This document shows, piece by piece, positions 1,228 through 16,040 of a DNA stretch of 17,550 nucleotides. Below the pieces are notes generated by a model. That model did not search any database, was not told the origin of the DNA, and saw only the letters and a list, made by a program, of their open reading frames with translations. The DNA comes from an uncultured archaeon (GTDB lineage Archaea; Asgardarchaeota; Lokiarchaeia; Sigyniarchaeales; SOKP01). The DNA is taken from the NCBI GenBank assembly GCA_964447495.1, contig CAYUTF010000072.1:1-17550 (forward strand), written 5' to 3'. The number at the start of each line of letters is the position of its first letter. Within the stretch, counting starts at the first letter, position 1. The position numbers and the translations under genes are program-made.

Positions 1228-1370
1228 TTAATTTCTTTAAATTCTTTTTTTATTTAATTTTTGAGAATCATTATATAGGGACTTCAATTATTGGACTACA
1301 ATAACTTAAATAAATTAATTAAATGTATACTTAATATATACAAATTATTATTGAAATGTGAGTAATTAAT

Positions 1371-2081: not shown

Positions 2082-2140
2082 GAAGAATTCTTTTCTATTT
2101 TTAAAAAAATTCAATTTCAGGTAATTTTTAACATCTAGTA

Positions 2141-3076
2141 TTATTCAGTTTTATTGGAAGGTATTTTAGGTAATTCTCTTCTTTTGGTTGCATTAACTTT
2201 TATACTTTCTGTATTATTTTTTGATGTAGTTATTTCTATAGATTCCTTTTTCTTCAGCACCTCTACTCCTTCTACAATACCCTTGTTATGATCAATATAC
2301 ACACGAAGTTTATTGTTATCTAACTCAATAATACCTTTAGGGAGGTTTTTGATTTCCTCCCATACTATGTCAGCCACACTTTTCCCTAATACTTCTGTCA
2401 CTTTAGAAACAGCACCATAAAGAGAATGACCTAATATTAAATTTTGTCTTTCGTAATTCATCGGAACCCCTTTTTTCAAAATCCTTTCCTTAATTTGTTC
2501 CTTTTCTTCGTTTGAAAGACCCATTATTTTCTTGATAGAAGTGGGTTTCATTAATAATTGAGTTTCCCCCTTTTGTTGAGAACTCCCGATCCGAATAGAG
2601 GACATCACTACATCATCAGTAGTATCCTCTAAGAGGGGTGAAAAATACTCTCCTTCAGAACTTTTTTCTTTGGCTAGCTTTTGCGCTTCATTCATTCTTT
2701 CTCGTTCAATATTTCTAATATAACGCATATCTGGCAATTTTTCTGTAGCTTCCATTGATTCTAGCTTAAACGCATTTAAAAATTCTTGTAATTCATCCCC
2801 TTGATCGATAGAAACTATTTTGCATCGATGATATCTCGAATCTGTTATTAATTCCTTCTGAATTTGCTGAGCTACTTTAGAACTTATAAATCTTTTACGA
2901 ACTGGAGATTTAGAACCTTTCCATATGAAAATCCTTCGGAGATCTTCCCGAACTATGATTAAGACCTGTTCGGGGTTTAAAAAACTCTTTAAATTTTCTT
3001 GTGTGATCTCTAATTTTTTACGTTCACCAGTATTTTCCAAGTCATATACCATAAACACCTCATAAACTTCTGTCAT
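2141..3076 (-). CDS. Single gelsolin/villin-like domain protein with uncharacterised C-terminal region (Asgard type)
   Basis: N-terminal ~105 aa LNPEQVLIIVREDLRRIFIWKGSKSPVRKRFISSKVAQQI...IVSIDQGDELQEFLNAF fits the gelsolin repeat pattern (L..D/E..I..W.G..S...A......QG.E..EF). Confidence 0.8.
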   Translation of the reverse strand: MTEVYEVFMVYDLENTGERKKLEITQENLKSFLNPEQVLIIVREDLRRIFIWKGSKSPVRKRFISSKVAQQIQKELITDSRYHRCKIVSIDQGDELQEFLNAFKLESMEATEKLPDMRYIRNIERERMNEAQKLAKEKSSEGEYFSPLLEDTTDDVVMSSIRIGSSQQKGETQLLMKPTSIKKIMGLSNEEKEQIKERILKKGVPMNYERQNLILGHSLYGAVSKVTEVLGKSVADIVWEEIKNLPKGIIELDNNKLRVYIDHNKGIVEGVEVLKKKESIEITTSKNNTESIKVNATKRRELPKIPSNKTE

Positions 3077-3266
3077 TTGATCATCCCTTTATGGTACTAT
3101 ATATCTACAGTTTCAGAATAAAAATTATTATTTGTTCTTAACAAGTTAGTCTTAAATTAAACATTTAAAATTACCGTATTCAATAAAATTTTTAATTATA
3201 TACAAAATTATAAAAAAGCATCTTCTATTTGAGAGATCCTCGATTATATTAGATGTGAACATACTT

Positions 3267-3290
3267 CATTAGTAATGAATATTACTAATG
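3267..3290. promoter_or_regulatory. Perfect 10-bp inverted repeat, candidate operator or hairpin in a divergent intergenic region
   Basis: CATTAGTAAT-gaat-ATTACTAATG between the divergent starts at 3076 (-) and ~3404 (+). Confidence 0.45.
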
Positions 3291-3403
3291 GTGATTTTGT
3301 ATTAAAGGCTGAAACATATCAAGTAAACTGCTAATGAATTACCATTATTTAGAAATTCTTTGACGTGTTCTTTATTAAATTCTTATCTCTCATTAGAATA
3401 GTT

Positions 3404-3568
3404 ATGAGTATCTTTTCAAAACTAATTCCTGAGTTAGGTATTTCCAATTTTTTTCTTAAGAAAAAAGCGTGTTATAATTGTGATACAAAAAAACATGTGT
3501 TATATATAAGGGAAATGGAAAATTATTTAGAACTTCTGTGCAAGAACTGCATAAAGCATAAAAGATAA
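3404..3568 (+). CDS. Small putative Zn-finger protein (~54 aa)
   Basis: CYNC and CKNC pairs. ATG at 3404 preferred over the GTG at 3365 in the ORF track. Fills the intergenic space without overlap. Confidence 0.55.
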   Translation: MSIFSKLIPELGISNFFLKKKACYNCDTKKHVLYIREMENYLELLCKNCIKHKR

Positions 3569-3590
3569 AAAATAGATAAGTTAAATTGCT

Positions 3591-4358
3591 TTAAAATCTC
3601 CGTGGAAATCTTCCAGGTCGATATGGTCCTCTTCGCCTCATTGGACCAGGACCAATCCGTGGGCCCATGCCTCCAGTATCGTGGAGAACATTATCTATAG
3701 ACAGAACAAATCCTAAGAGAATCCTTCTATCAGTCACATTATCAAGGATTTTCAAAGCATAAGTATCACTATAATCAAACAACCCTCCAAGGAATACATC
3801 TCTCCATCTATCAGCTTTTTCGATTTCTGCGACGAGCTTTTTTGTTGCAGTTTCATAAATTTTAAATGACCAACCCATAAAATTTCCCTCTGCTTCATAC
3901 CATCTGGTCCTAGTTTCAGGTTCCTCTAAATAGAAAACGTGTCGAAAGAAGGTTAGGATTTTTCTTTTAATTGTTGCAATTGGTTGACCATCTGGTGTTT
4001 TAAGATCCTGGGCTCCACGAGCAGACACAATCTTGCTATGAATAGTTGCTCCAACAGTACCATCAATTTCTTGTAATTCAACTCTTCTTCGAATACTAAA
4101 TATTTGACGATTCATCCTTCCAATAAGCTGACCCTTTTCATCTAAAATATCACCGTAACCTAAGTCCCACATTTTCTCCTTAATTACATAATAATTTCTA
4201 TTTAGATCAAATAATCCCCCTTCTTTTTTTGGAGCTGTTCTGATTTGGGGCTCTGTTGTTTGTTTTGAGGGCGGTTCTCTTTTTAATTCACTCCCGCATT
4301 TTTCGCAAAATCTTTGTTCACTAGTCACTTTAGCGCCACAATTATCACAATATTGCAT
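3591..4358 (-). CDS. Zn-ribbon + LURP-one/Tubby-C (phospholipid scramblase-like) domain protein with Arg/Gly/Pro-rich tail
   Basis: N-terminal CDNC-x10-CEKC. Beta-rich domain with YVIKEKMWD..GDILDE.G..IGR, TIKRKILTF, EGNFMGWSFKI, DTYALKI and a closing hydrophobic helix ILLGFVLSID, typical of the LOR/Tub_2 family. GAGGT SD-like site upstream. Confidence 0.85.
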   Translation of the reverse strand: MQYCDNCGAKVTSEQRFCEKCGSELKREPPSKQTTEPQIRTAPKKEGGLFDLNRNYYVIKEKMWDLGYGDILDEKGQLIGRMNRQIFSIRRRVELQEIDGTVGATIHSKIVSARGAQDLKTPDGQPIATIKRKILTFFRHVFYLEEPETRTRWYEAEGNFMGWSFKIYETATKKLVAEIEKADRWRDVFLGGLFDYSDTYALKILDNVTDRRILLGFVLSIDNVLHDTGGMGPRIGPGPMRRRGPYRPGRFPRRF

Positions 4359-4528
4359 ATTATTTACCTCAAAAAATTTGAAATTAGATTTATTAATATT
4401 TAATCATGAATAATCCGTCGTTTCTAATAAATGTAAGGGGAGAAATAACTTTCAAGGAGGATATAGAGAAATGTTTTAATTTCACTAAAATTTTAAGTAA
4501 GTAATTAAAGATAAAGCGAGAAGAAAAA

Positions 4529-5308
4529 TTGGTTTCAAAATACTCAATACCTTACTTATTAAAGCTTAAGGATTATATTACTCTTACGGGTACAATATTA
4601 GGAATAATCTCTTTAATATGTGCTTGTGTAGGTACAAAAGACGCAATCTCTTTAGGATTTTTCTTGGTGACCATTGCGTTGGGCACGGATTTAGTTGATG
4701 GATATATAGCAAGGAAGACAGGGACTGTTAATGATATGGGAAAAGAGCTAGATTCTTTAAGTGATTCATTAACATTTGGAATTTGCCCTGCCATACTAAT
4801 TTTTCAAGCTTTTAATATTGGTGGTGTATTTAATCTATTTCTCCTTATTGCTTGCATTTGCTTCGCATTAGGAGCAATTCTAAGACTAGCCCGGTTTAAT
4901 TTATCTTTAAATATTGGCTATACTGGTCTCCCTACTCCAATTAGTGCGTTATTAATTATTGCATATTTTTATGCAAACTATTTCTATTCCTTAGCGTATC
5001 CAACGGCAATACCTTCCTTTCCTATTATTGCCTATTATGCAATTCCATTTTTTCTAATATTCATTGCTTGGTTAAATATAACCACACATATTTCTTTTGG
5101 TGAAAAAGGGAAAATTGTTTATATAATTTTTCTTTTAACTGCGCCACTTGGTCCGATTTTTGGGATCATAGGGATTATGAATCCAAATTATCTCTTATCG
5201 ATATCTGTTGCAATAATTTTTGTTTCTTCCTTTTTTCTCATGTTTATCTATATTCTCTATGGGTTTATTATAAAATATAAATCTTCAAAAATAACTAATT
5301 CTAGTTGA
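4529..5308 (+). CDS. pssA: CDP-alcohol phosphatidyltransferase, PssA/archaetidylserine synthase-like
   Basis: Signature DLVDGYIARKTGTVNDMGKELDSLSD plus RLARFN and GLPTP motifs of the PssA subclass; multiple TM helices; TTG start. Substrate specificity is inferred. Confidence 0.8.
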   Translation: MVSKYSIPYLLKLKDYITLTGTILGIISLICACVGTKDAISLGFFLVTIALGTDLVDGYIARKTGTVNDMGKELDSLSDSLTFGICPAILIFQAFNIGGVFNLFLLIACICFALGAILRLARFNLSLNIGYTGLPTPISALLIIAYFYANYFYSLAYPTAIPSFPIIAYYAIPFFLIFIAWLNITTHISFGEKGKIVYIIFLLTAPLGPIFGIIGIMNPNYLLSISVAIIFVSSFFLMFIYILYGFIIKYKSSKITNSS

Positions 5309-5345
5309 AAAAGGAGCAAAAAGGTATTTTTTTTGAAATTTTCCT

Positions 5346-7343
5346 CTATAAGATTTTAGATTTCCATTCTTCAATACTTTCTTTGATTTGAATGATATTT
5401 TCTTGACTTAATGGATGGACATAGAGTTTATACTGATTAATAGTACTTCTTAACTTATGTAAGGTAACTGAAAAACCTTTTTTTTCCAAGACAAGATCTG
5501 CAATATTTTGTAATTCTTTGCTAAAATTTTCTCCGTTTAACTTCTCAAGTTTCTGAACTAACTCATTAAATGCTTTATCGATTAAAATTCCTGCTTGATC
5601 ATTTGCTTTTGGCTGAATTTTTGAGACAAAATCCACATGTTGTTGGATTTGTTTTGTCAAATCATTAATCGCCTCTGAAGTGTTTGGTTGTACTTTTGTT
5701 GGGACTGTTCCTTGTAATGGTGATTTTATAACTACTCTTCTTGCTGAAGGTTGTATCTCATCTTTATCCTTTACAAAAAGAGGTTCTTGTTTCTTGTTCG
5801 CCTTGATATTATCAGGTATTTCAATTGAGGGTTGAATTCGCTTTATTGGAGTTGTTTCTAAAGCTGTATCCGATTTTATTTCTTTTACTCCAATTGATTT
5901 TGGTGTTTGATATAATTCAGAACTCCCTTTTTCCCACATATAATTAATAAAACTGGTGAAAAGATTTACGTATGATTTATGATTACTTGCAAATCCTATA
6001 AAATCATTAAGAGGATCCTTTGAATTCATATTAACAATTCCAATAATTAAATAATCCTCATCTCCTTTCAAAATGATGATATCATCGTTTTTAAGAGTTC
6101 GATATTCAAGATTTTTGAGTTCTTTAAATTTTTTCACTAAACTATTTGTATGAGCTTCTGATGATGCAATCTTAACTTTTACATTATTTCTTAACGATTT
6201 AAATGAATCTACTAATAAATGAGTTTCAATTTTTGGTAGAATTAACATAAGTTCTTTGTTAGATTTTGCAATAGTATTAGTTATATCTTCATTAACCCTA
6301 GAAATACTGTTAACAAACCATAAGTTAGTTAGTTGTACTTTTTCGGGTGAAATATACGATTGGAAATAATTTTTCATAACTTTATCTATGGGATTACTAA
6401 GAGCGGCGACAGAATCCACAGAATTCTTAATTACCACTTCAAAATTATCTAAGATGAGTTTTTCAAATTTTTCTAAATCGCTAGATAACTCCCCTTTTTT
6501 AGATTTTATCATATCAATGATTTGATTGATTTTTTGTTCATAGTTATTTACTGTATTGACTAATAGCATCTTAAAATCATCCCGAAATTGAAAGGTTGAT
6601 TTGGTGATATTCTTAAGTGATTCAGTGGTGTTACTAAATTCCGAGTTTATTAATTCATGTAGTTGGGAAGTAAAATTCTTTATCAACTCTTCCGAATTTT
6701 GTTTAAAAATCCTTTCAATTAGCTTTTTCACCGAATCTTCATGCTTCTTCAATTCTAAGTATCCCAATTGGGTAAGTAAGTCATCTTTTATCTTTGTTAC
6801 CATTTTAAATAAATTTGAAAATTCTCTTTGAGTAATCCCTTTAATTCTTTGATGAAGGTCTTTTAAAACTTCCTCAAAAATATTAAGATTCTCCATTCCC
6901 TGAACAATATCTTCAACTTCCTGTCTTTGAATTATGGATTCCTCTTCAATGTCTTTCTTCATATCCTGAGTGGTCTGAAAAATATTATCCAACTCTAAAA
7001 GAGAATTCTTATCAAACGTATTATGTAAGGTCTTAGCTAGTAGTTGATGTAATTGATTCTTAATACTGTCTAAATTCGCATTGATATTAGCGATATAAGT
7101 TATAATCGGATTAAAAGGGGGAATAACCAGATAAGTCATTATAATCTCTGGATCCAGAGATTGGATAGGAACTAGTAGCCCCATCTCCAAAAGTTCATTT
7201 AAAGTAGTTGAATATTCCTCTTGAGATAAGTTTGGAACAATTGAATAAATTTCAAAAGAAGAAAGTGCAGGTTTACCCAAACTCTTAAGATAAATTTGAA
7301 TTGCATTTTCAGACAGATGCAGTTGTTTTAAAAAATCTTCCAT
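5346..7343 (-). CDS. TrmB-like protein: N-terminal wHTH, long helical/coiled-coil region, PLD-fold (TrmB effector-type) domain, linker and helical C-terminal domain
   Basis: LHLSENAIQIYLKSL...TLNELLEMGLLV resembles the TrmB wHTH; ~250 aa heptad-rich helix; ITNTIAKSNKELMLILP...VKVKIAS resembles a PLD-like fold with no HKD motif. ATG at 7343 follows GAGGA (ORF track start is TTG 7355). Confidence 0.7.
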   Translation of the reverse strand: MEDFLKQLHLSENAIQIYLKSLGKPALSSFEIYSIVPNLSQEEYSTTLNELLEMGLLVPIQSLDPEIIMTYLVIPPFNPIITYIANINANLDSIKNQLHQLLAKTLHNTFDKNSLLELDNIFQTTQDMKKDIEEESIIQRQEVEDIVQGMENLNIFEEVLKDLHQRIKGITQREFSNLFKMVTKIKDDLLTQLGYLELKKHEDSVKKLIERIFKQNSEELIKNFTSQLHELINSEFSNTTESLKNITKSTFQFRDDFKMLLVNTVNNYEQKINQIIDMIKSKKGELSSDLEKFEKLILDNFEVVIKNSVDSVAALSNPIDKVMKNYFQSYISPEKVQLTNLWFVNSISRVNEDITNTIAKSNKELMLILPKIETHLLVDSFKSLRNNVKVKIASSEAHTNSLVKKFKELKNLEYRTLKNDDIIILKGDEDYLIIGIVNMNSKDPLNDFIGFASNHKSYVNLFTSFINYMWEKGSSELYQTPKSIGVKEIKSDTALETTPIKRIQPSIEIPDNIKANKKQEPLFVKDKDEIQPSARRVVIKSPLQGTVPTKVQPNTSEAINDLTKQIQQHVDFVSKIQPKANDQAGILIDKAFNELVQKLEKLNGENFSKELQNIADLVLEKKGFSVTLHKLRSTINQYKLYVHPLSQENIIQIKESIEEWKSKIL

Positions 7344-7494
7344 TTTTATCCTCAATAGATTAGTATGTTGAAATGGAGTTTCTTATTTTTAATAATAAGA
7401 TATATACCTATTTATTTTTAAATTTTTTAAGATATAAAATATTTAAAGAATATTATCCTTAAAATTAATTATTAATTGCTAGGTTTTCAATTCT

Positions 7495-8808
7495 ATGAAA
7501 GTTTCTTATGAGGATGTATTTATATATCTAGATCTAACAAAGGAAATTTTAAAGAAAAAAGAAATTGCTAAAGCGATTAAATATTATATTTCAGAGAAGA
7601 ATAAAATCAATATAAATGGGCACTATGGCTTATTAATCTTTCAAGAAGAAGGTAATCCTATATTTATAACCGATAAAAAGGATTCAGATATTATTTTAAA
7701 TGCAATTGATGAAAATTGGAAGTTACGCCCAAAAAAGAAATCCTACTTTGAGAATGGATTATTCTATATTTTTTCCTATATTGCTGAGACTGTGAGAAAG
7801 AAGTCCAAATATAATCGAGTTATAGTAATTACAGATACTGCTAGTGATCTTTCTGAAGATTATACTGATGCATTATTTAATCTTGTCTCAAAAATTAAAG
7901 TATTCCCTACATTTATAGACATTATAAGAGTTTCAGATAAAGAGGAGCGCTTTTTCAAGGATGATGTCAAATTAAATATCCTTGCTAGTGACACAAAGGG
8001 AGGTATTTTTTATATTAAAGATAAAGCCGAATTTCATAATGTTTTTAAAAAACTTGTAAAATCCAAGCAATTAATTAATATCTTTGCCGATAAAGCTGAT
8101 AAAGTTAAAATAAAAAAAGAGGATTATGCTTTTTACTCTCAATTAGCGAAGGATTTAATTGATTCCCCAAAAGAACTATCAGCCGTGCAATGTTTTTTTT
8201 GCTCAGATGAGATCTGCCCTGTATGTACTAATATTAATGATATTCCAAAAATGTGTCCCGAGTGTTCTACCGCTTTCCATCATTGTTGTATTACAAATTA
8301 TGCGATTCAATATAACATTGGAATTCCGCATATATTTCGGTGCCCAAAATGTGATGTGCTATTAAAAATACATCAAGATGAGATAGTTGTACCTGAAGAT
8401 TCTTCTATTAAATCAGCGGAAGACTATATAGACTGGGATACTATAGAAGGACCTGGAGCACCAGAGCAATTAGATAATCTTCCAGAGATTCAATATTCAA
8501 CCAAATTATCATCAAGTTCAGAAGAAAAATCTCACACAGTCAGAATTGGGGGTTATTTTGGAAAAGTCTATATGGTTAAAAAGGTAGATAATAAATTAAT
8601 ATATCAAAAGATAAAAAAGAATATAGCTATCACTGGAGAGATACAAGAAATAAATGTTGATACTAATATTAAAAATGCATATGCGGGTCCATTAAAGAAA
8701 AAACCTGAAATCCCAATTACCTCTTGTCCTGAATGTGGAACTCAACTTAATACTGATCTTATCAAAGATAATAACATTTGCCCCTTCTGTGGGCATAAAT
8801 TAGCTTGA
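7495..8808 (+). CDS. vWA-like domain + RING/PHD-like Cys-rich finger + C-terminal Zn ribbon (paralog 1)
   Basis: vWA strand/helix pattern (VFIYLD, YGLLIF, RVIVITD, FIDIIRV, LASDTKGGIFY) with degenerate MIDAS; Cys10His2 cluster at 8191-8352; terminal CPEC...CPFC. Confidence 0.75.
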   Translation: MKVSYEDVFIYLDLTKEILKKKEIAKAIKYYISEKNKININGHYGLLIFQEEGNPIFITDKKDSDIILNAIDENWKLRPKKKSYFENGLFYIFSYIAETVRKKSKYNRVIVITDTASDLSEDYTDALFNLVSKIKVFPTFIDIIRVSDKEERFFKDDVKLNILASDTKGGIFYIKDKAEFHNVFKKLVKSKQLINIFADKADKVKIKKEDYAFYSQLAKDLIDSPKELSAVQCFFCSDEICPVCTNINDIPKMCPECSTAFHHCCITNYAIQYNIGIPHIFRCPKCDVLLKIHQDEIVVPEDSSIKSAEDYIDWDTIEGPGAPEQLDNLPEIQYSTKLSSSSEEKSHTVRIGGYFGKVYMVKKVDNKLIYQKIKKNIAITGEIQEINVDTNIKNAYAGPLKKKPEIPITSCPECGTQLNTDLIKDNNICPFCGHKLA

Positions 8809-8923
8809 GTAACTATTTTTAAATTTTTATTTTTGAAATATATATTATTTTTCTTGTGAAAGAATGGAACAATCAATAAAAATAAATAAAGATTCTCACA
8901 TTATTCATATATAATTTTATCAA

Positions 8924-10291
8924 ATGTCTAAAACAAATCGATTTATGTCTGATGCTAAAATGTTAAGAAAACCATCAATTAATTCGGAGGAATTCATCTT
9001 TTACATTGATCTTATTTCAGATTTCCTTAAAAAAAAGACACTTGTTAAGGGCATTAATTCTTTTATTAAAGAGAAAAATAATTTTAATATTTTAACCTCT
9101 TATGGATTAGTCATCTTTCAAGATGATGATAATCCTATTACACTCTATGATGAAAAAGATTCTGATGTAATACTTGATCATTTAAATGATAAATGGGAAA
9201 CGCGTGAGAAAAATCATAGCTTTCTGGAAAATGGTTTATTTGAAATCTTAGCATACATCTTTCGAAAAAGTCAACAATCTAGAAAAAATTATCGTGTAAT
9301 TGTTGTTTCAGATGTTCCGAGTACCTTATCTGAAGATTACCATAATGCTCTCTACGATTTATTAATTAAAGCTAGAAATTTCTATGCATTTATTGATATT
9401 ATTCGTGTTGGAGACGACAAATTTTATGATGATGATGTAAAGTTAAAGGTGATTTCTTCTGAAACTCATAGCGGTGTTTTTTACTGTAATGATCCAAAAC
9501 TTTTTCCTAATATTTTAGGGTCATTAGTACAAAATAAAACCGAGTTTAATGTCATACAACCTGATGAAGAAAATCCTATATTAATAGAAGATAAAATCTT
9601 TTATGAGAAGTTAGCCGTTGACTTAATATCACTTGATTCAGAGGATAAAGAGATTTGTGATATTTGCCAACAAGAATTATGCCCAATATGTGAAGCACAT
9701 TCGGATGAGGTACATAAATGCTTCAATTGTAATGCGAAATATCACACATGTTGCGCAGCAAACTATTCGATAAATAATAACATTGGATTTATGCATTTAT
9801 TTAGATGTATCCAATGTGACACTTTACTAAAATTAGACGAAGATTTTGTAAATTTAGTATATGAAGAAGAATATGGAGAAGAAACTCAGGAGCAGTTAGA
9901 TGAAGAACAAATCCTAATCACAGGAGACGAGGAAGTGGATTATGATGAAGAAATATACGAAGAGCATTATACAGGACCTATTCTTTCAGTAGAAAATCCG
10001 ATGGAAGAAGGACCAGTAGAACTTGAAGTAATACCCGAAAAGAAGGTAAGGATAGGAGGTTATTTTGGACAAGAAATAACAATTAAACCGAAAAATAATG
10101 GACATGATAATACTTTAAAAGTAATAGACACAGTAGTTAACGTTCGTGGAGAGTCTCCTCCAGTTAAAAAACCCATTTCGATAACATCTCTTAAACCACC
10201 TAAAAGAACAACTATTAAATTGTGTAAAATATGTGGTACCACAATTACAAGTGTTCAAATTTGTCCAAATTGTGGTGCACGCGTAGATTAA
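8924..10291 (+). CDS. vWA-like domain + RING/PHD-like Cys-rich finger + acidic linker + C-terminal Zn ribbon (paralog 2)
   Basis: Collinear with 7495-8808 (FIFYID, YGLVIFQ, ENGLF, RVIVVSD, FIDIIRV, DDVKL); identically spaced Cys10His2 cluster at 9656-9817; terminal CKIC...CPNC. Confidence 0.75.
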   Translation: MSKTNRFMSDAKMLRKPSINSEEFIFYIDLISDFLKKKTLVKGINSFIKEKNNFNILTSYGLVIFQDDDNPITLYDEKDSDVILDHLNDKWETREKNHSFLENGLFEILAYIFRKSQQSRKNYRVIVVSDVPSTLSEDYHNALYDLLIKARNFYAFIDIIRVGDDKFYDDDVKLKVISSETHSGVFYCNDPKLFPNILGSLVQNKTEFNVIQPDEENPILIEDKIFYEKLAVDLISLDSEDKEICDICQQELCPICEAHSDEVHKCFNCNAKYHTCCAANYSINNNIGFMHLFRCIQCDTLLKLDEDFVNLVYEEEYGEETQEQLDEEQILITGDEEVDYDEEIYEEHYTGPILSVENPMEEGPVELEVIPEKKVRIGGYFGQEITIKPKNNGHDNTLKVIDTVVNVRGESPPVKKPISITSLKPPKRTTIKLCKICGTTITSVQICPNCGARVD

Positions 10292-10329
10292 CCTGATATT
10301 AGGGTAAAAGAAATGACTTTTTAAATTCC

Positions 10330-10362
10330 AATAGAATTAAAATAATGATACGCTATTCTATT
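10330..10362. promoter_or_regulatory. Inverted repeat AATAGAAT-N17-ATTCTATT just before the DMT start codon
   Basis: Arms at 10330-10337 and 10355-10362, downstream of a TTTTTAAA TATA-like element (10318-10325). The same arms recur at 13701-13731. Confidence 0.5.
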
Positions 10363-10364
10363 TA

Positions 10365-11288
10365 ATGACTTCTTTAGGATTTAAATCATTAAGAGTTACC
10401 CCTACAATCTCCAAAATATCAATGCTAACTTCAGGCATTTGCATGGGGAGTGTTGGTCTTTTTATTACGCTCTTAAACGGTTATTCAATTTATTCAATAA
10501 TATTTTTTCGGGGACTTTTTGGAACAATTTTCCTCACCATTTTAATGATAATTACCAAATCGTTTTCGATTAGTTTCATTTCTGAATCTTTTAGACGCTA
10601 CTGGAAATATCTTCTAATCGTTGCTATAACAAATCCCTTGGTTATATTCTTCTACTTTTGGAATATTCAACTATCAGGATCAGCATTCGCAGCGTTTTTG
10701 CTTTATACTAGTGGTTTGTTCCTCCTTATTTTTCTCACTATAACTAAAGAAGAAAAAATTTCTAAATTAAATTATATCTGCTTTATTCTCGCAATTATTG
10801 GAGTTTCCATTATAATGGAGTTTTGGACAGAAAACTTTTTCTCATTTGGGATAATAATTGGTTTACTTTCGGGTTTAAACTTAGGAATTTTGATATTTTC
10901 TAAGAAAAAAATCTATAATCATCGAAGGAAAAATCAATCAGTATTACGTAAAGAAGGAAATTTTGACGTTTTGTTAACGTGGTGGTCAACCTTATTTTTA
11001 ATAATTATCTTTTTTCCAATGGGTTTTAATGATCTATTCAGATTTACACTTAATGATTTACTCTTTAGTTTATTATTAGGCTTTTTTCCCACGGCCTTTG
11101 CTTTTACTCTCTATAACATTGGCGTGAAAAATGATAAGGGAGGGAATATCATAATTCTTTCTTATTCTGAAATTGTAGTATCCGTGATTGTAAACTTATT
11201 CTTTTTCCCCAAGCTTTCCATCTTTACGATTATTGGTGGAAGTTTTGTGTTATTAGCCAATGCATTAGTACTAAAGTATTCTAAATAA
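10365..11288 (+). CDS. DMT/EamA family transporter
   Basis: ~10 TM helices in two repeats; IIFFRGLFG, AAFLLYT..LF, KEEKIS, LGFFPTAFAFTLY, ILSYSEIV, IIGG motifs. Confidence 0.9.
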   Translation: MTSLGFKSLRVTPTISKISMLTSGICMGSVGLFITLLNGYSIYSIIFFRGLFGTIFLTILMIITKSFSISFISESFRRYWKYLLIVAITNPLVIFFYFWNIQLSGSAFAAFLLYTSGLFLLIFLTITKEEKISKLNYICFILAIIGVSIIMEFWTENFFSFGIIIGLLSGLNLGILIFSKKKIYNHRRKNQSVLRKEGNFDVLLTWWSTLFLIIIFFPMGFNDLFRFTLNDLLFSLLLGFFPTAFAFTLYNIGVKNDKGGNIIILSYSEIVVSVIVNLFFFPKLSIFTIIGGSFVLLANALVLKYSK

Positions 11289-11373
11289 CTATCAAATTGT
11301 TTTTTTTCAATGCAATATTAATAATATTACTCTTAAACTAAATTATTGAATTTTAACATATTTGAGTCTTATT

Positions 11374-12090
11374 ATGCATGAAAATAATGAAGAAGAGATT
11401 TCGAGAATAAAAGAACTTGAAAGTATAAACCTAGCTTCACCCGAAATACGAGATTCAGTGGTATCGACTAAAAAAAGTATCGAAAAGGAAAATGAACTGT
11501 TAGCTTCGAAAATTAACACTACTCTCAAAACTCATAATATTAAATCGTTTGATATTGTAGGTGCTATTGGCGCAGGAAAAACGGAAATCATTTCTCAAAT
11601 TGTAGAAAAATTATATACAAAATATAAAATATTGGTAATATGTGGTGATATTATTACTCGAGTTGATGCAAATAGAATAGAAGCTCATAATGCTGATACC
11701 GTACAAATAAATACTGGGCGAGAATGCGCGTTAAATGCATATCATATTCACCAAATTATAAAAAATAAAGATTTAAACAAATATGATCTCTTATTTATTG
11801 AAAATGTAGGCAATCTTATCTGCCCTTCTGATTTTATATTAGGAACAGATAAGAGAATAGTAGTTGTCTCTATAACAGAAGGAGAATGGGTAATTGAGAA
11901 ACATCCAATGCTTTTTAAAATGTCTGATATAGCAGTGATTAATAAAATTGATTTAAAAGAACGTCTAGGCACTAACGTAGATAAAATGATAAATGATGCG
12001 AAAAGGATTAACCCGAATATTGAGATTATTACTACCAGTGCAAAAAAAGACACTAATATAGATAAATTGATATCTCATATGGGACTTTAG
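11374..12090 (+). CDS. hypB: Hydrogenase nickel incorporation GTPase HypB
   Basis: P-loop GAIGAGKT, QINTGRECAL, FIENVGNLICPSDF, SITEG, KHP, NKIDL. ATG at 11374 preferred (ORF track start is TTG 11362). Confidence 0.93.
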   Translation: MHENNEEEISRIKELESINLASPEIRDSVVSTKKSIEKENELLASKINTTLKTHNIKSFDIVGAIGAGKTEIISQIVEKLYTKYKILVICGDIITRVDANRIEAHNADTVQINTGRECALNAYHIHQIIKNKDLNKYDLLFIENVGNLICPSDFILGTDKRIVVVSITEGEWVIEKHPMLFKMSDIAVINKIDLKERLGTNVDKMINDAKRINPNIEIITTSAKKDTNIDKLISHMGL

Positions 12091-12126
12091 AGGAGTTAAT
12101 TAAATTAAAAGCCAAATTGATTTATA

Positions 12127-12546
12127 ATGAAGGAAGAATTAAAGAAAATTGAATTGTTATTAGAAAATCCGAATAAGATACAAGAAGTTGCGCTGAAAAA
12201 TATATTGAAATCGTTATTTCCAAAGATATCAAATCATATTGATAATTATATAGGAGACTATCCCACATTTATTGAACCTGTATATTTAGCAGAAAATGTT
12301 CAGATAGGAGACGACGTTCTTCTTGGTCCAAATGTATATATTGGGTCTAATGTGAAGATTGGTAATTATGTTGAACTTTCAAATACAATTATTTTTGATA
12401 ATGTGTCCATTGGAAATAACTTTAAATTGGAAAATTGTCTAATTGCTCCAAATTCTCATCTCAATTTTGAAAATTTTAAATGTAAATCAAGTGTTCTCAT
12501 TGGAGATGCTGCTTCTGAGAAGGACTTGCGAAAAATTATCTTTTAG
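12127..12546 (+). CDS. Stand-alone left-handed beta-helix (hexapeptide repeat) protein resembling the C-terminal domain of NDP-sugar pyrophosphorylases
   Basis: PVYLAENVQIGDDVLLGPNVYIGSNVKIGNYVELSNTIIFDNVSIG hexapeptide periodicity; no nucleotidyltransferase domain. Confidence 0.8.
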   Translation: MKEELKKIELLLENPNKIQEVALKNILKSLFPKISNHIDNYIGDYPTFIEPVYLAENVQIGDDVLLGPNVYIGSNVKIGNYVELSNTIIFDNVSIGNNFKLENCLIAPNSHLNFENFKCKSSVLIGDAASEKDLRKIIF

Positions 12547-12548
12547 CT

Positions 12549-13388
12549 ATGAATGTGATTATTATGAAGCAGTATAAGAAATTTTTTGATGCAAATTTAA
12601 AACGCTGGAATGAATTAGTCGATATTAATGCTAAGTCAAAATTTTATGATTTAGACGGATTTAAAGAGGGAAAAACCTCCCTTTTTTCAATTGAACGCGA
12701 AGAATTAACAGATGTAAAGGATAAAACGCTCCTTCACTTACAATGCCATTTTGGAATGGATACACTTTCATGGGCACGAATAGGTGCGAAAGTTACTGGT
12801 GTTGATTTTTCAGATAAAGCAATTAAATTAGCAAAAATGTTATGTAATGAATTACAGATTCCTGCTAATTTTATTCACTCAAATATTTATGATTTACCTA
12901 AGGTTTTAGATGAAAAATTTGATATAGTATTTACTTCCTGTGGAGTAATTGGGTGGTTACCTGATTTATATGCATGGGCGCAAATCATTAACCATTATTT
13001 AAAACCTGGTGGTATTTTTTATATTGTTGATAATCATCCATTTGGAAATTTAATTGATGAGAAGTTCAAAGAAGAATTCCGAATAGGTTACGATTACTTC
13101 AATGAAGGGAAACCTAATCGTTTTGATGATGATGGTGCTTATGTTGATACAAGGATTCAAATTGAAAATAAAACAACATACGATTGGTTTCATCCAATGG
13201 GGGATATCATTAATTCTCTCCTTGAAGTTAATTTTGAAATTCTATTTTTGCATGAGTTCCCCTTTTCTTTCTTTCAAATTCACCCCGATATGAAACAACG
13301 TGAAGATGGCTATTGGGAGTTTCAAACATTTAAGCATTCAATTCCTATGATGTTTTCATTGAAAGCAAAAAAAAAGAATCATCTCTAA
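12549..13388 (+). CDS. Class I SAM-dependent methyltransferase
   Basis: LLHLQCHFGMDTLS (motif I variant), VTGVDFS, FDIVFTS, LKPGGIFY. Confidence 0.92.
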   Translation: MNVIIMKQYKKFFDANLKRWNELVDINAKSKFYDLDGFKEGKTSLFSIEREELTDVKDKTLLHLQCHFGMDTLSWARIGAKVTGVDFSDKAIKLAKMLCNELQIPANFIHSNIYDLPKVLDEKFDIVFTSCGVIGWLPDLYAWAQIINHYLKPGGIFYIVDNHPFGNLIDEKFKEEFRIGYDYFNEGKPNRFDDDGAYVDTRIQIENKTTYDWFHPMGDIINSLLEVNFEILFLHEFPFSFFQIHPDMKQREDGYWEFQTFKHSIPMMFSLKAKKKNHL

Positions 13389-13438
13389 ATTGCGATCTTA
13401 GTTGTATTTTACTATACACATTTCACTCTAATCGTGAA

Positions 13439-13561
13439 ATGTTTATTGAATATGTTGGCAATTTAATCTGTCCTTCAGATTTCATTTTAGGTACAGATAA
13501 ACGAATTGTAATTGTATCTATTACTGAAGGAGAATGGGTCATTGAAAATAAGAATTATTAA
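13439..13561 (+). pseudogene. hypB: hypB internal fragment (40-codon ORF, below the ORF-track cutoff)
   Basis: Translates MFIEYVGNLICPSDFILGTDKRIVIVSITEGEWVIENKNY*; 13442-13546 matches hypB 11794-11898 at 33 of 35 residues. Confidence 0.9.
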
Positions 13562-13696
13562 AATCTAATTTTTTGTTTTTTCAAAGTTCTGCAGTGATAT
13601 TACCACTTAAAATAAAAAAATAAAATTTATCTTTATTTTTTAATCAACTAGAAGCTAGTCAACATTAACTTACTTCCATTTATCTCTAATTTATAA

Positions 13697-13735
13697 TTTT
13701 AATAGAATAAGCTTATATAAAAAATTCTATTAAAA
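13697..13735. promoter_or_regulatory. 12-bp perfect inverted repeat bracketing a TATA box, upstream of the small membrane protein/ABC unit
   Basis: TTTTAATAGAAT (13697-13708), 15-nt spacer containing TTATATAA (13713-13720), ATTCTATTAAAA (13724-13735). Confidence 0.55.
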
Positions 13736-13785
13736 ATAATAATATAAACCTAAAAAGTATAAAAAAAGCAAAAGAGGTACGAAAT

Positions 13786-13986
13786 ATGGCATTGTTCTGG
13801 AATTATAAAGCAAGGTTCATATTAGGGGGATGTATTGTTACAATTATAAGCGTTATATTGCTCATTATACGCCCTGATTTATTCATTTCTTATGTACTAA
13901 TTGTGATCGGAATAATTGCTTTAGTGATCGGGTTAATTTGGAAATCTAAACCTAAAGAGAAACCAGATGATAAGAGCACGAACTGA
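13786..13986 (+). CDS. Small two-TM membrane protein
   Basis: Two hydrophobic helices and a charged tail; GAGGT SD-like site 7 nt before ATG. Confidence 0.75.
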   Translation: MALFWNYKARFILGGCIVTIISVILLIIRPDLFISYVLIVIGIIALVIGLIWKSKPKEKPDDKSTN

Positions 13987-14092
13987 TAGATTTTCTCTGA
14001 CATTATGAAAATTACAATTTATCAATTATTATTTGAAATTTTATAAAAGAAAAAAATGAAAATTTAACGAACAACTTAATAGGTACATAATA

Positions 14093-15010
14093 ATGATTAA
14101 AATTGAAAATTTGACCAAGAATTATGGAAAACTGACAGCTGTTGATAACATTTCATTGCAAATTGAAGAAGGTGAAGTATTTGGTTTGCTTGGTCCTAAT
14201 GGTGCCGGTAAGACAACCACAATTAGGGTATTATGTTGCCTTATATCTAAAACGAGTGGTACTGCAACTTTAAATGATTTGTCAATTGATAACAATAAGG
14301 ACAAACTTGAAATTCGTAAAATGATCGGATTCTTACCGGATAATGTGGGCCTTTATGAAAGTATGACCGCCTATAAAAATTTGGATTTCTATGCAAAACT
14401 TTATCAGGTTCCTAAAAATAAACGAAAAGAACGGATTGAATATTATTTGAAAATGCTAGATTTATGGGAGAAAAAAAATGTGGTTGTAGGCACATTTTCC
14501 AAAGGAATGAAGCAAAAATTAGCTATTGTTCGAACATTGGTCCATGAACCAAAATTCTTGTTTATGGATGAACCGACGGCAAGTTTGGATCCAGAAGCGA
14601 CTAAGATGGTGAGAGACTTTATCCTTGAATTGAAAAAAGAAAAGCGGACTATTTTTTTAAATACGCATATGCTCGATGAGGCAGAACGAATCTGCGATCG
14701 CGTGGGAATTTTGAATACCCATCTAATAGCCATCGGATCTCCCGATGAATTACGCCATTCTTTGTGGGGAAAGAAATCTGTTGTAGTAGTGGATGCAGTT
14801 ACAGATAATATCCTCAAAAGTATAAAATCTCTTGGATTCGAAAAAATTGAAGTAGATAATAACAAAATAACCATTGACGTTAATGATCCTCGCAAAGATA
14901 ATTCTCCCATTACCCGCGCAATATTAGATGCGGGTGGACAAATTCAAACTATTTCAGAGCTTGTTCCAAGCTTAGAAGATATTTATTTGAAAGAAATTAG
15001 GAGGAAATAG
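14093..15010 (+). CDS. ABC-2 type exporter ATP-binding subunit
   Basis: Walker A GPNGAGKTT, signature FSKGMKQK, Walker B FLFMDEPT, H-loop NTH. Confidence 0.95.
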   Translation: MIKIENLTKNYGKLTAVDNISLQIEEGEVFGLLGPNGAGKTTTIRVLCCLISKTSGTATLNDLSIDNNKDKLEIRKMIGFLPDNVGLYESMTAYKNLDFYAKLYQVPKNKRKERIEYYLKMLDLWEKKNVVVGTFSKGMKQKLAIVRTLVHEPKFLFMDEPTASLDPEATKMVRDFILELKKEKRTIFLNTHMLDEAERICDRVGILNTHLIAIGSPDELRHSLWGKKSVVVVDAVTDNILKSIKSLGFEKIEVDNNKITIDVNDPRKDNSPITRAILDAGGQIQTISELVPSLEDIYLKEIRRK

Positions 15011-15014
15011 GGAA

Positions 15015-15752
15015 ATGAATACTAAAAATGTTTGGACGATAACTTCAAAAGATATTGGTCTTTTTATTAAAAAAAAATGGATACTTTATGCCGCATTAAT
15101 TTTACCGTTAGCTCTTTCAATCGGGTTACCCTTAATAGTTTTGTATGTTATAAATAACAGAACTCTTCCCGATATATCGGCAATATTTCCGATATTTAAT
15201 GCATTTTCGTTTTTTTTCATGGTTCTTTCTGCGATAATTCCAACTGTTATCGCATCTTACAGTTTTGTAGGGGAAAAAACTGAAAAAACTCTTGAACCCT
15301 TATTAGCAACTCCAACTACTGATGATGAAATCTTACTCGGGAAGAGTTTAGCGGCATTTCTGCCTGTAATAATTATGATATTTATTGCTGCTGCTATATT
15401 CACGGTCCTGATGGATATTTTTACTGGCGCTAAAGTTGGTTATCCTTATTTCCCAAACTTGAACTTTATGATTCTGATATTTTTAAACTCTCCACTAGCA
15501 TGCGTTATGAGTATAGAATTAAGTATCATAATCTCCTCTCGCATGAGTGATATCCGCTCAGCCCAACAATTATCTGGACTCTCAATGGTTCCATTCATTG
15601 TATTATATCTTCTTATCGAAATTAATGTCATTACGCTTGATGTTAATACCTTACTTATAATTGCCGGAATTATTGCCGTAATTGATGTTTGCTTGTTTTT
15701 ACTCAGTCGAGCTGTATTTAAACGTGAAGAGATCTTAACGAAATGGAAATAA
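15015..15752 (+). CDS. ABC-2 type exporter permease
   Basis: Six TM helices; SFVGEKTEKTLEPLLATP...ILLGK motif; 4 nt downstream of the ATPase gene. Confidence 0.93.
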   Translation: MNTKNVWTITSKDIGLFIKKKWILYAALILPLALSIGLPLIVLYVINNRTLPDISAIFPIFNAFSFFFMVLSAIIPTVIASYSFVGEKTEKTLEPLLATPTTDDEILLGKSLAAFLPVIIMIFIAAAIFTVLMDIFTGAKVGYPYFPNLNFMILIFLNSPLACVMSIELSIIISSRMSDIRSAQQLSGLSMVPFIVLYLLIEINVITLDVNTLLIIAGIIAVIDVCLFLLSRAVFKREEILTKWK

Positions 15753-15759
15753 AAAAATT

Positions 15760-15776
15760 AATTTTTTTTCTTTTCT
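15760..15776 (+). terminator. Oligo-T tract, candidate archaeal intrinsic terminator of the ABC unit
   Basis: T8-c-T4 run within 25 nt of the permease stop codon. Confidence 0.45.
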
Positions 15777-16040
15777 AAATTCTCCCTACAGTGATATTTT
15801 TAACTGCTTATTTCCGCTGATGATCTAACTTATCTATTTTAAGATATTTAATTAATAGCAAGGGATTTTTAGGAGAAACACTTGCTATTTTATACTTTAA
15901 GCTTACAAATTATCTTCCAAATGCGTACATAATCTAAAGTTATTTCACTTGAATGGGAATATTATGGGATAAAATTACAGTAAGCTTTTTCAATTCACAT
16001 AAACTTATTCATTTAATTAAAAATTTTTGTGAAAAAGAAT

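Follow-up and report, generated by a model that had tools for sequence, protein, structure and literature searches.

Does a tandem pair of vWA-RING genes in an uncultured archaeon encode a ubiquitin ligase, a relative of the TFIIH subunits p44/Ssl1 and p34/Tfb4, or something else? The pair lies in a stretch of 17,550 nt (GenBank assembly GCA_964447495.1, contig CAYUTF010000072.1, positions 1 to 17,550), which is called the window here. A preliminary description of this DNA had proposed a heterodimeric E3-like or p44/p34-like module that could be related to the ancestor of the p44/p34 or Rpn10-type vWA proteins. To our knowledge, no prokaryotic forerunner is accepted for TFIIH p44 and p34 or for proteasomal Rpn10, and none was found in the literature searched.

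The upstream gene PAR1 (P0001; 7495..8808, + strand) encodes 437 aa according to its ORF and translation, with a vWA domain, a RING, a linker and a Zn ribbon in this order. Its neighbour PAR2 (P0002; 8924..10291, +) encodes 455 aa as an ORF, and alignment of its orthologs points to the 13th codon (nt 8960) as the probable true start. The two genes lie on one strand and are spaced by 115 nt (8809..8923), where a T-rich run past the PAR1 stop is followed by a TATA-like AT-rich stretch ahead of PAR2. Their products are collinear from end to end (35% identity, 466 columns, E 4e-85; BLASTP), a similarity far above chance, and the adjacent, co-oriented paralogs of the preliminary description were recovered as such. 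We found 632 homologs of PAR1 (E≤1e-3) and 438 of PAR2, and the two clades were supported by SH-aLRT values of 97 and 99, respectively. Homologs of the pair are labelled Promethearchaeota or Lokiarchaeota in their source records, and a gelsolin ORF is present in the window, in agreement with the Asgard-like archaeon assumed at the outset.

The N-terminal region of PAR1 (7501..8070, +; residues about 3-192) had been taken for a vWA domain, and its AlphaFold model (mad2a08824856; block pLDDT 78-97 across residues 1-190) bears this out. Modelled residues 3-192 gave Z≥8 with 653 of the 997 chains compared, as expected of a vWA fold. Superposition on solved vWA domains (VIA-align) reached Z 20.8 with human p44 (rmsd 2.5 Å, 176 residues), and p44/Ssl1 chains occupied ranks 1-20 in the 997-chain comparison. 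When the full model was scanned against 48,161 representative chains, the top three were again p44/Ssl1 (Z 19.8, 19.4 and 19.1), and the best 50 (Z 19.8 to 14.5) included p44/Ssl1, ArnB, Rpn10, p34, integrin I, Sec23/24, Ku and collagen VI vWA domains. The best Foldseek E-value for the PAR1 model, 8.5e-10, belonged to yeast Ssl1. Among solved structures, the modelled vWA domain appears closest to that of p44, by a small margin of 1-2 Z over ArnB and Rpn10. The vWA domain of PAR2 (8978..9541, +) was assigned by collinear alignment to PAR1 and has a weak Pfam VWA match at residues 49-187.

Neither protein had been credited with an intact MIDAS, and the orthologs agree. PAR1 has a degenerate motif (D13-L-T15-K-E17) and keeps D114; its orthologs read D-L-T-K-(D/E), with D13 in 18/18 rows, T15 in 16/18 and D, E or N at position 17 in 11, 6 and 1 rows. 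PAR2 is more degenerate (D-L-I-S-D; orthologs D-L-(I/L/T/S/V)-(S/T)-(D/N/E)). The intact D-x-S-x-S...T...D was absent from the PAR1 and PAR2 rows, in which the first Asp and D114 alone are kept. Since this metal site has decayed, metal-free binding of a partner or substrate is the most likely role of the domain.

A conserved helix (8116..8145, +; F213, Y214, L217 and A218 at least 90% conserved), aligned by hhalign to the equivalent helix of an Ssl1-like family, precedes the C4HC3 RING-type finger of PAR1 (8191..8367, +). The ligands of this finger are C241, C244, C254, C257, H262, C265, C283 and C286, with extra C233, C236 and C264; those of PAR2 (9656..9832, +) are C253, C256, C266, C269, H274, C277, C295 and C298, with extra C245, C248 and C276. 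The spacing is C-x2-C-x9-C-x2-C-x4-H-x2-C-x17-C-x2-C, and all eight ligands are invariant in the 41 aligned family members (41/41). Beyond them, the finger of the pair has one additional CxxC and C264, which is kept in 18/18 PAR1, 15/15 PAR2 and 3/3 basal rows and in 0/7 third-paralog and 0/3 Ssl1-like rows. A third zinc site formed by the extra CxxC and C264 is possible.

The model of the PAR1 finger domain (pLDDT 88.9) reached Z≥5 with seven of the 48,161 solved chains and Z≥8 with none. Almost all of its listed matches were RING or U-box E3 domains (FANCL, Z 6.6 and 6.4; Listerin, 6.0; Nse1, 5.3; Deltex, 5.2; APC11, 5.1), and Foldseek returned the same kinds with weak E-values; the p44 RING gave Z 4.4. 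The predicted finger can be superposed on solved RING domains at modest Z, consistent with the RING/PHD-like finger read from the sequence beforehand. By Pfam, Prok-RING_1 (PF14446) matched 12/41 family members at E≤1, the best being an outlier row (L035) at 30.5 bits (cut-off 29.1 bits), and zf-RING_2 matched 10/41; neither P0001 nor P0002 itself had a Pfam RING match at E≤1. Two positions that we take to touch the E2 in RING domains are kept in the pair. The aromatic residue four past ligand 6 is Y, F or H in 15, 2 and 1 of the 18 PAR1 rows and Y in 15/15 PAR2 rows; the Pro right after ligand 7 occurs in 18/18 PAR1 and 6/15 PAR2 rows. Searched against the genome, the finger profile found, at E 2e-4, a protein of 681 aa with a passing match to Pfam zf-RING_2 and, at E 0.0019, a membrane protein whose gene comes immediately behind the Ub-like, E1, E2 and JAB genes of contig C62.

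The linker that follows had been described as variable, which holds for one part of it. In PAR1 this part (8386..8529, +) has gappy alignment columns and pLDDT <50 at residues 300-306 and 315-343; it is also rich in Ser/Thr. The region is not variable throughout, for a beta motif with the family consensus V-R-I-G-G-(F/Y)-F-G lies between finger and ribbon. In PAR1, V-R-I-G-G-Y-F-G and the following strands span 8533..8610 (+; residues 347-372, strands predicted at 347-351, 357-364 and 367-372); the motif is conserved in PAR2 as K-K-V-R-I-G-G-Y-F-G (10040..10123, +), and the glycines G352 and G353 are present in 18/18 PAR1 and 15/15 PAR2 rows. The expected C4 zinc ribbon closes both proteins: in PAR1 (8716..8802, +) C411, C414, C429 and C432 are at least 90% conserved, with weak Pfam Zn_ribbon matches, and in PAR2 (10217..10285, +) the ligands are C434, C437, C447 and C450.

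The same genome carries two Ssl1-like vWA-RING-RING genes (G000:C93 6532-7725, 397 aa; G000:C11 51918-53096, 392 aa). A profile of the pair only (33 rows) matched that of the Ssl1-like family (14 rows) with a probability of 99.2% (hhalign; E 2e-19, 280 columns), and this homology is collinear over the vWA domain, the pre-RING helix and the C4HC3 finger. Both genes also share with the pair a finger ending in F-R-C-x-x-C-x-x-L-L-K and language-model scores of 0.93-0.94 (172-180 features in common). In contrast to the degenerate site of the pair, the DxSxS MIDAS of the Ssl1-like genes is intact (3/3), and a second RING-H2-like finger stands at their end, where the pair has beta motif and ribbon. 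C93 and C11 pass the Pfam Ssl1 model (PF04056) at 37 and 33 bits (cut-off 27), whereas the pair fails it: at E≤1, a scan of the whole genome found these two genes and not the pair, and Ssl1 was absent among the 25 Pfam families listed for the 41 family rows. Against the PDB, the Ssl1-like family profile matched Rpn10 (E 3.9e-18) and p44 (about 1e-14) first. The C93 and C11 genes are better p44/Rpn10-like candidates than the pair.

How old is the duplication? PAR1/PAR2 was seen within one archaeal family only. PAR1 lies upstream of and adjacent to PAR2 in 17 of the 20 genomes holding both (separate contigs in 3/20), so that the pair is indeed kept together. A single copy is found in the same-family genera g4 and g6, and g5 retains just a 166-aa PAR1 remnant; because some same-family genomes have a single copy, a heteromer is not obligatory for the ancestral function. 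A duplication that took place inside one archaeal family cannot have given rise to the p44/p34 duplication of eukaryotes; it runs parallel to it at best, which contradicts the proposed relation of the pair to the p44/p34 ancestor. The same follows from distribution, as the older Ssl1-like family is present in 120/121 genomes of the class, whereas the pair type was found in one order only. The pair is a young, lineage-restricted offshoot of the Lokiarchaeia-type Asgard vWA-RING superfamily.

In agreement with the preliminary description, a Pfam scan of 15 ORFs of the window detected no E1, E2, ubiquitin, XPB or XPD domain. The genes flanking the pair are of housekeeping types, and the 15-gene neighbourhood is syntenic as a whole among relatives. 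Divergent from the pair lies a gene for a 669-aa protein (5346..7355, −) with a weak Pfam Regulator_TrmB match (E 0.0084, under cut-off). It was found beside PAR1 or PAR2 in 13/13 loci examined, in one of them with a 2.4 kb gap, and is possibly a regulator or partner of the PAR gene(s). The genome does encode the ubiquitin-system components that had been expected of an Asgard archaeon, namely two UQ_con (E2) genes and, on another contig than the pair, an operon in which a ubiquitin-family ORF is followed by ThiF E1, E2 and JAB in a row and then by a RING-like protein. An XPD-type DEAD_2 gene is located on contig C125, apart from the pair, and Tfb2/p52 had no match at E≤1 in this genome (98% complete). 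Archaeal and Asgard E1/E2/RING cascades are reported to be active in vitro (PMC5654768; 10.1101/2023.07.25.550441).

We infer all that is said of the pair's function from its established features, which are the domain architecture, the predicted folds, the homology to Ssl1-like genes, how old and how widespread the duplication is, the conserved adjacency and the genome's ubiquitin system. Our preferred reading, to which we give a probability of about 45%, somewhat short of even odds, is that PAR1 and PAR2 are a RING E3-like ligase or adaptor pair. The vWA domain with its decayed metal site would bind a partner or substrate metal-free, and the RING would recruit one of the genome's two E2s charged with the ubiquitin-like protein and act in ligation, while vWA domain, beta motif and ribbon would hold the target or partner complex. 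PAR1 and PAR2 would probably form one hetero-oligomer, with PAR2 as the more conserved, ancestral-type subunit. Architecture, finger ligands, fold matches, the genome's ubiquitin system, the kept adjacency and the link to the superfamily suggest such a ligase or adaptor. Against it stand the absence of an E1, E2 or Ub gene near the pair, the low absolute Z of the finger, a C4HC3 spacing that fits PHD fingers too and the loss of the Pro after ligand 7 in 9/15 PAR2 rows. Adjacency among close relatives may have shared ancestry as its sole cause.

The rank of p44/Ssl1 in the structure scans, with yeast Ssl1 as the best Foldseek match, would also be consistent with a non-catalytic, p44/p34-like scaffold in which the paralogs lock together, the vWA domain of one touching its partner's RING or ribbon, and organise another machine, for instance around the genome's XPD-like helicase. 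After archaeal clusters, the nearest language-model neighbours of both paralogs are eukaryotic TFIIH p44 (0.86-0.88) and Tfb4 (0.81-0.82), scores that, lying below 0.9, serve as no more than leads. For TFIIH, the vWA and C-terminal zinc domains of p34 are reported to bind the p44 RING (PMC5737387), and the p34 MIDAS is reported to be disrupted as well (PMC4094531). The XPD-type gene of the genome would supply a helicase, but it lies on another contig and is not accompanied by Tfb2/p52. Moreover, Pfam Ssl1, C1_4 (PF07975) and Tfb4 (PF03850) have no match in the pair (C93 and C11 match Tfb4 under its cut-off, at 23.9 and 17.5 bits), the finger is nearer to canonical E3 RINGs (Z 6.6) than to the p44 RING, the domain order differs, the lead over ArnB and Rpn10 is small and the duplication is recent and limited to one family. 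We therefore consider the scaffold unlikely. Of the TFIIH-like character proposed beforehand, the vWA fold has stood, with p44 as its best match, whereas Pfam models and domain order have not borne it out. In fold and architecture the likeness to p44/p34 is genuine. It is best explained not by direct ancestry but by a common origin of the wider superfamily and the eukaryotic intracellular vWA proteins (p44, Rpn10), followed by a separate duplication.

ArnB, the best non-TFIIH structure match (Z 18.6, rmsd 2.7, 171 residues; its paralog VWA2, Z 15.7), points to a regulatory module in which vWA domain and zinc ribbons would serve phosphorylation- or signal-dependent expression control, perhaps with the TrmB-like neighbour at all 13 loci and with the Ser/Thr-rich PAR1 linker. 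This is rather improbable, given that the window holds no FHA protein or kinase, that ArnB is devoid of a RING, that the TrmB match is weak and that synteny among such close relatives says little about a functional link. It is very unlikely that the pair is an Rpn10-like adaptor whose vWA domain docks on a complex of proteasome-like or AAA type and whose zinc modules bind ubiquitin or substrate, not an E2. Rpn10 is the top match of the sister Ssl1-like family and the best vWA match of the pair family profile in the PDB, the latter not significant (E 0.035), but proteasome genes were not found nearby, and no UIM or other ubiquitin-binding family, whose short motifs are easily missed, was detected by Pfam in the pair or the 41 rows. 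The finger spacing fits the PHD signature as well, and a PHD/C1-type reader of a peptide (e.g. histone) tail or lipid would agree with Pfam PHD and C1_2 matches (7/41 rows each), with PHD chains among the weak PDB sequence matches and with one homolog named 'DC1 domain-containing' in its source record. All E-values to PHD chains exceeded 0.01, though, the structure matches were mostly RING/U-box E3 domains and the lone PHD-named row in the best 50 (PHF7) is E2-bound, which makes such a reader highly improbable.

What does the pair mean for the eukaryotic modules? The class-wide Asgard vWA-RING family, whose profile has Rpn10 and p44 as its first matches in the PDB, and the derived pair, with a predicted fold nearest p44, are clonable candidates for asking whether these modules grew from archaeal RING ligases. 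A bolder scheme, which we hold to be improbable, sees in the class-wide superfamily the archaeal stock of p44/Ssl1, p34/Tfb4 and Rpn10; PAR1/PAR2 would then independently replay the p44/p34 step, in which a vWA-RING gene was duplicated into a mutually binding heteromer, one copy with an E2-facing RING surface and the other a scaffold. The pair also bears on how a duplicated vWA-RING gene turns into a heteromer. Should the ligase reading prove correct and the pair be an active E3, substrate-binding E3s would join the small set of characterised archaeal ubiquitin ligases.

Among known systems, the layout of the pair is nearest to that of TFIIH p44 and of RING ubiquitin ligases. Rpn10/PSMD4 is an intracellular vWA protein of the ubiquitin system (Z 18.2 to the vWA model of the pair) but has UIMs and neither RING nor ribbon. 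ArnB of Sulfolobus (8s05_B) is an archaeal cytoplasmic vWA protein that works with a zinc-ribbon partner; unlike the pair it has no RING, and its partner ArnA is an FHA protein. TFIIH p34/Tfb4 (structure Z 16.7-17.7, below p44, ArnB and Rpn10) resembles the pair in a vWA domain with disrupted MIDAS, a C-terminal C4 zinc domain and a paralogous vWA-RING partner, but has no RING. TFIIH p44/Ssl1 shares with the pair a vWA domain followed by zinc modules including a RING; its order is vWA-C4 finger-RING instead of vWA-RING-ribbon, its RING is C4C4 where the pair has a C4HC3 finger, and the link to XPD is missing from the pair. The RING E3s FANCL, Listerin, Nse1 and APC11, whose RINGs we take to have C4HC3 ligands, and the small RING E3s of archaea have the eight-ligand cross-brace pattern in common with the finger of the pair, which differs from them by its additional CxxC and Cys; the ubiquitin operon of this genome encodes a RING-like protein with a finger of the same kind.

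The window (about 30% G+C over 17,550 nt) carries two co-oriented open reading frames, PAR1 (P0001, 437 aa; 7495-8808, plus strand) and PAR2 (P0002, 455 aa; 8924-10291, plus strand), separated by a spacer of 115 nt. Judging from the alignment of its orthologs, PAR2 probably starts at the 13th codon (nt 8960). Aligned over their full length, the two proteins share 35% identity (E 4e-85), confirming that they are adjacent, collinear and diverged paralogs, as stated in the preliminary description. Database searches at E<=1e-3 yielded 632 clusters for PAR1 and 438 for PAR2, each paralog having its own large ortholog set, and for all 241 proteins among the matches listed, the score against one paralog exceeded that against its sister by a factor of at least 1.75. 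Within the genus, PAR2 orthologs are 58-66% identical, compared with 52-61% for PAR1. The host had been described as Asgard-like, in agreement with a gelsolin-repeat gene at 2141-3076 (minus strand) and with close homologs named by their sources as Promethearchaeota or Lokiarchaeota archaeon. A sigma-70 and terminator scan, which is of bacterial type and not suited to archaea, gave 14 sites (18.6 expected).

We modelled PAR1 with AlphaFold on a 41-row alignment of the family (mean pLDDT 76.9). In the model, residues 1-190 form a confidently predicted alpha/beta domain, 208-217 a helix and 233-291 the zinc finger region; two stretches are of low confidence, 347-372 contain three strands, and a small ribbon lies at the C-terminus. 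The eight finger ligands (C241, C244, C254, C257, H262, C265, C283 and C286) are invariant in 41/41 rows and conservation of the four ribbon cysteines is 90% or higher, consistent with a finger and a C4 ribbon in each protein. An extra CxxC and C264, both confined to PAR and basal sequences, may form a third zinc site, which would bring the predicted zinc content of each chain to four ions (two in the RING, one at this site and one in the ribbon). The linker had been called variable, which holds for the low-confidence stretches but not for its whole length, since it contains a V-R-I-G-G-(F/Y)-F-G beta motif with both glycines present in 18/18 PAR1 and 15/15 PAR2 rows. The metal site (MIDAS, DxSxS) is degenerate in both paralogs, as had been noticed: PAR1 orthologs read D-L-T-K-(D/E) and PAR2 orthologs D-L-(hydrophobic/T/S)-(S/T)-(D/N/E), leaving the first Asp and D114 as the sole MIDAS residues kept in the pair.

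In a Foldseek search of the PDB with the PAR1 model, TFIIH Ssl1/p44 chains ranked first (best E 8.5e-10). VIA-align, applied to the Foldseek list, gave human p44 a Z of 20.8 (rmsd 2.5 A, 176 residues), with ArnB (18.6), Rpn10 (18.2), p34 (17.1-17.7) and an integrin I domain (17.5) behind it. When 48,161 representative chains were scanned independently, p44/Ssl1 took positions 1-3 (Z 19.8, 19.4 and 19.1), then came ArnB (18.6) and Rpn10 (18.2), with a slow fall through ordinary vWA domains thereafter. From these rankings we assign the modelled N-terminal domain of PAR1 to the vWA fold, with p44 as its predicted nearest solved relative by a small margin of 1-2 Z units; the vWA claim of the preliminary description is thereby upheld.

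The finger was also modelled alone (96 residues, pLDDT 88.9). Foldseek E values were weak (0.2 and above), and the list was full of RING E3 domains. Against the 48,161 chains, none of which reached Z 8 or above, the best folds were FANCL (Z 6.6 and 6.4), Listerin (6.0), Nse1 (5.3), Deltex (5.2) and APC11 (5.1), and nearly all of the best 50 rows were RING or U-box domains. The E3 RINGs outscored those of p44 and Ssl1 (Z 4.4 and 4.1), which argues for a RING-type cross-brace more akin to the RINGs of E2-binding E3s than to that of p44 and favours the RING side of the earlier RING/PHD-like label.

In sequence searches, P0001 and P0002 fell below every vWA and RING cut-off of Pfam. At E<=1, the 41 aligned relatives matched Prok-RING_1 (12 rows), zf-RING_2 (10), PHD (7), C1_2 (7), VWA_2 (7) and VWA (6). 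Against PDB sequences the single proteins, as well as the C-terminal 114 residues of PAR2, gave nothing significant, and the matches of the family profile were all weak (APC11 0.0019, Arkadia RING 0.0073, PHD fingers about 0.01, Rpn10 0.035). A genome-wide scan with Pfam Ssl1 did not match the pair; it found two other genes of about 395 aa above the curated cut-off, on contigs C93 (397 aa; 6532-7725, minus strand; locus L036) and C11 (392 aa; 51918-53096, plus strand; locus L037). Pfam Tfb4 matched these two alone in the genome, below its cut-off, and C1_4 matched neither them nor the pair. These models do not bear out the p44/p34-like nature suggested for the pair. The products of the C93 and C11 genes have an intact DxSxS and two fingers, the first of C4HC3 type, ending in F/V-R-C-x-x-C-x-x-L-L-K like that of the pair, and the second RING-H2-like. 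Adjoining the C93 gene, in divergent orientation, is a gene whose 402-aa product has a GTPase domain resembling Gtr1/RagA and Arf (L036 2204-3412, plus strand).

We compared the families by hhalign using a pair-type profile of 33 rows, made after taking out the third paralogs (described below) and the single Ssl1-like row. It aligned with the Ssl1-like family at a probability of 99.2% (E 2e-19) over 280 columns spanning vWA, helix and finger. The E of 3.8e-39 obtained with the full 41-row alignment is inflated because that alignment contains one Ssl1-like row (L035), without which the value was 1.5e-26. The Ssl1-like profile itself first matched Rpn10 (E 3.9e-18) and human p44 (about 1e-14) in the PDB, and at lower rank a bacterial BatA-like protein (2.9e-11), yeast Ssl1 (1.5e-9) and MERIT40 (2e-6); in a homolog search with its alignment, the matches listed were close archaeal relatives only. 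Language-model features grouped both paralogs with their own clusters (0.97-0.98), then with Asgard Ssl1-like clusters (0.93-0.94), followed by eukaryotic TFIIH p44 (0.86-0.88) and Tfb4 (0.81-0.82), values below 0.9 serving as leads only. We conclude that the pair is most closely related to uncharacterised vWA-RING-RING proteins of the Ssl1-like type in the same class, and that the C93 and C11 genes make better candidates for p44/Rpn10-like proteins than the pair does.

The two families differ in their spread. Phylum-wide searches with P0001 at E<=1e-5 were positive in 28/151 sampled genomes, namely the window's own, all 25 others of its family (f1) and 2/2 of a second family (f2); the remaining 25 families, with 123 genomes, gave no match. 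Pfam Ssl1 was above cut-off in exactly the same 28/151 genomes, and the Ssl1-like profile was found in 120/121 genomes of the class, four further families included. P0002 matched a PAR-like gene (E 3.4e-32) in one genome from a further family of the same order, and weakly (E 1e-9 to 1e-11) Ssl1-like genes of about 400 aa in four genomes from other orders of the class. Many f1 genomes carry, at another site, a third and shorter paralog (about 380 aa, with vWA, finger and ribbon), which was not found in the window's genome. In one genome a copy of about 370 aa is tandemly duplicated (G049, contig C61; L033 4029-5108 and 5886-7028), a second tandem case in the superfamily. Seven longer proteins, P0297, P0306-P0310 (about 1090-1120 aa) and P0311 (727 aa), have PAR-like N-terminal vWA and zinc modules and a long tail, whose several hundred C-terminal residues had no Pfam match.

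A tree of 46 rows, leaving out four rows cut by locus ends (L007 1-1322, L018 3014-4389, L020 2873-3882 and L022 1-1212), both L008 rows, L006 and a 166-aa remnant in L028, recovered a PAR1 clade (SH-aLRT 97; genera g1-g3) and a PAR2 clade (SH-aLRT 99; g1, g2, g5 and g6), with the single-copy genes of g4 and g7 in an open fork at the base. Genus g6 has PAR2 only, and g5 has PAR2 together with the remnant of PAR1 (G132, contig C118; L028 5543-6043, minus strand), which retains finger and beta motif only, lies upstream of an intact PAR2 and looks like the decay of one partner. Where both genes occur they are adjacent with PAR1 upstream in 17/20 genomes and on separate contigs in 3/20, so the pair is largely conserved together. 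The likely order of events is an old class-wide vWA-RING-RING family, an order-level offshoot in which the MIDAS was likely lost and the ribbon gained, and a family-level tandem duplication. The pair is a young offshoot, and because its duplication is family-level, after the order-level step, it is too young to be an ancestor of p44/p34, the preliminary description having proposed that it could be related to one.

The neighbourhood encodes a DeoC aldolase, a HEAT/Zn-ribbon protein (1371-2081, plus strand), the gelsolin, a Zn-ribbon and LOR/scramblase-like protein (3591-4358, minus strand), a CDP-alcohol phosphatidyltransferase, a 669-aa protein, PAR1, PAR2, an EamA transporter, a CobW GTPase and others, and was syntenic in 13/13 f1 loci examined. 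The gelsolin, LOR/scramblase-like and HEAT-repeat genes form an upstream block that is syntenic across the family. The 669-aa protein (5346-7355, minus strand; weak TrmB-like match, E 0.0084), transcribed divergently from PAR1, stands beside the PAR gene(s) in 13/13 related loci, even where identity drops to 28-37%. Conservation in the neighbourhood is highest for a gene encoding a beta-eliminating lyase family protein (16029-17417, plus strand; Pfam E 7.5e-74), which is 85-89% identical within the genus. A defence-island or vWA-MoxR reading was rejected because AAA+ and effector genes are absent nearby and the neighbours are housekeeping genes. As previously reported for E1, E2, ubiquitin, XPB and XPD, no ubiquitin-system or repair gene lies in the window.

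Ubiquitin-system components, which the preliminary description ascribed to Asgard archaea in general, are present elsewhere in the genome. A gene row on contig C62 (15034-19280; L071) encodes a ubiquitin-family protein (15034-15369, 111 aa), a ThiF E1 (15436-16671, 411 aa), an E2 (16749-17285, 178 aa), a JAB peptidase of 277 aa and a multi-pass membrane protein of 386 aa whose C-terminus is RING-like; the finger profile of the pair matches this membrane protein at E 0.0019. A second E2 gene, on contig C67, lies outside the row. Another candidate E3 of this genome is a coiled-coil-rich protein of 681 aa (contig C40 17445-19490, minus strand; L072) that terminates in a C4HC3 RING passing Pfam zf-RING_2.

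An aromatic residue four positions after ligand 6 occurs in all PAR2 and 17/18 PAR1 rows, and a Pro after ligand 7 in 18/18 PAR1 rows versus 6/15 PAR2 rows; we take both to be RING E2-contact positions. Based on these, on the RING-E3 fold matches and on the complete ubiquitin system, we tentatively read the pair as a RING E3-like ligase or adaptor, at somewhat less than even odds (about 0.45). The finger would dock a charged E2, the metal-free vWA domain, aided by beta motif and ribbon, would hold a substrate or partner, and PAR1 and PAR2 would act together. That PAR2 evolves more slowly and keeps the Pro in fewer rows would fit, purely by analogy with known heterodimeric RINGs, a division into active and supporting subunits. 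Reconstitution of archaeal E1/E2/RING cascades is reported (PMC5654768; 10.1101/2023.07.25.550441).

The vWA rankings headed by p44, together with an XPD-type helicase gene outside the window, point to a non-catalytic scaffold resembling p44/p34; Tfb2 had no match in the genome, the finger resembles E3 RINGs more than that of p44, and we regard such a scaffold as unlikely. Less probable again is a regulatory module like ArnB, in favour of which stands its place as the next fold in both rankings. That the pair serves as an adaptor in the manner of Rpn10 appears improbable; in its favour are the structural match to Rpn10, close behind ArnB, and the weak sequence match of the family profile to it. 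Least probable of all is a PHD/C1-type reader, for which the few PHD and C1_2 rows speak, set beside a finger scan dominated by RING and U-box domains.

Among the papers that our literature search covered, none dealt with the Ssl1-like/PAR vWA-RING family. Burroughs, Iyer and Aravind reportedly described prokaryotic RING families in 2011, and public annotation pipelines already tag the Ssl1-like proteins with PF04056. From the pair the analysis arrives at an Asgard family, present across the class, that neighbours Rpn10 and p44 by its sequence profile, and the origin of those eukaryotic modules therefore becomes testable. By their defining models the pair falls outside the p44, p34 and Rpn10 families; as modelled it looks like, and in the mechanism proposed would work like, a p44-type vWA-RING protein.
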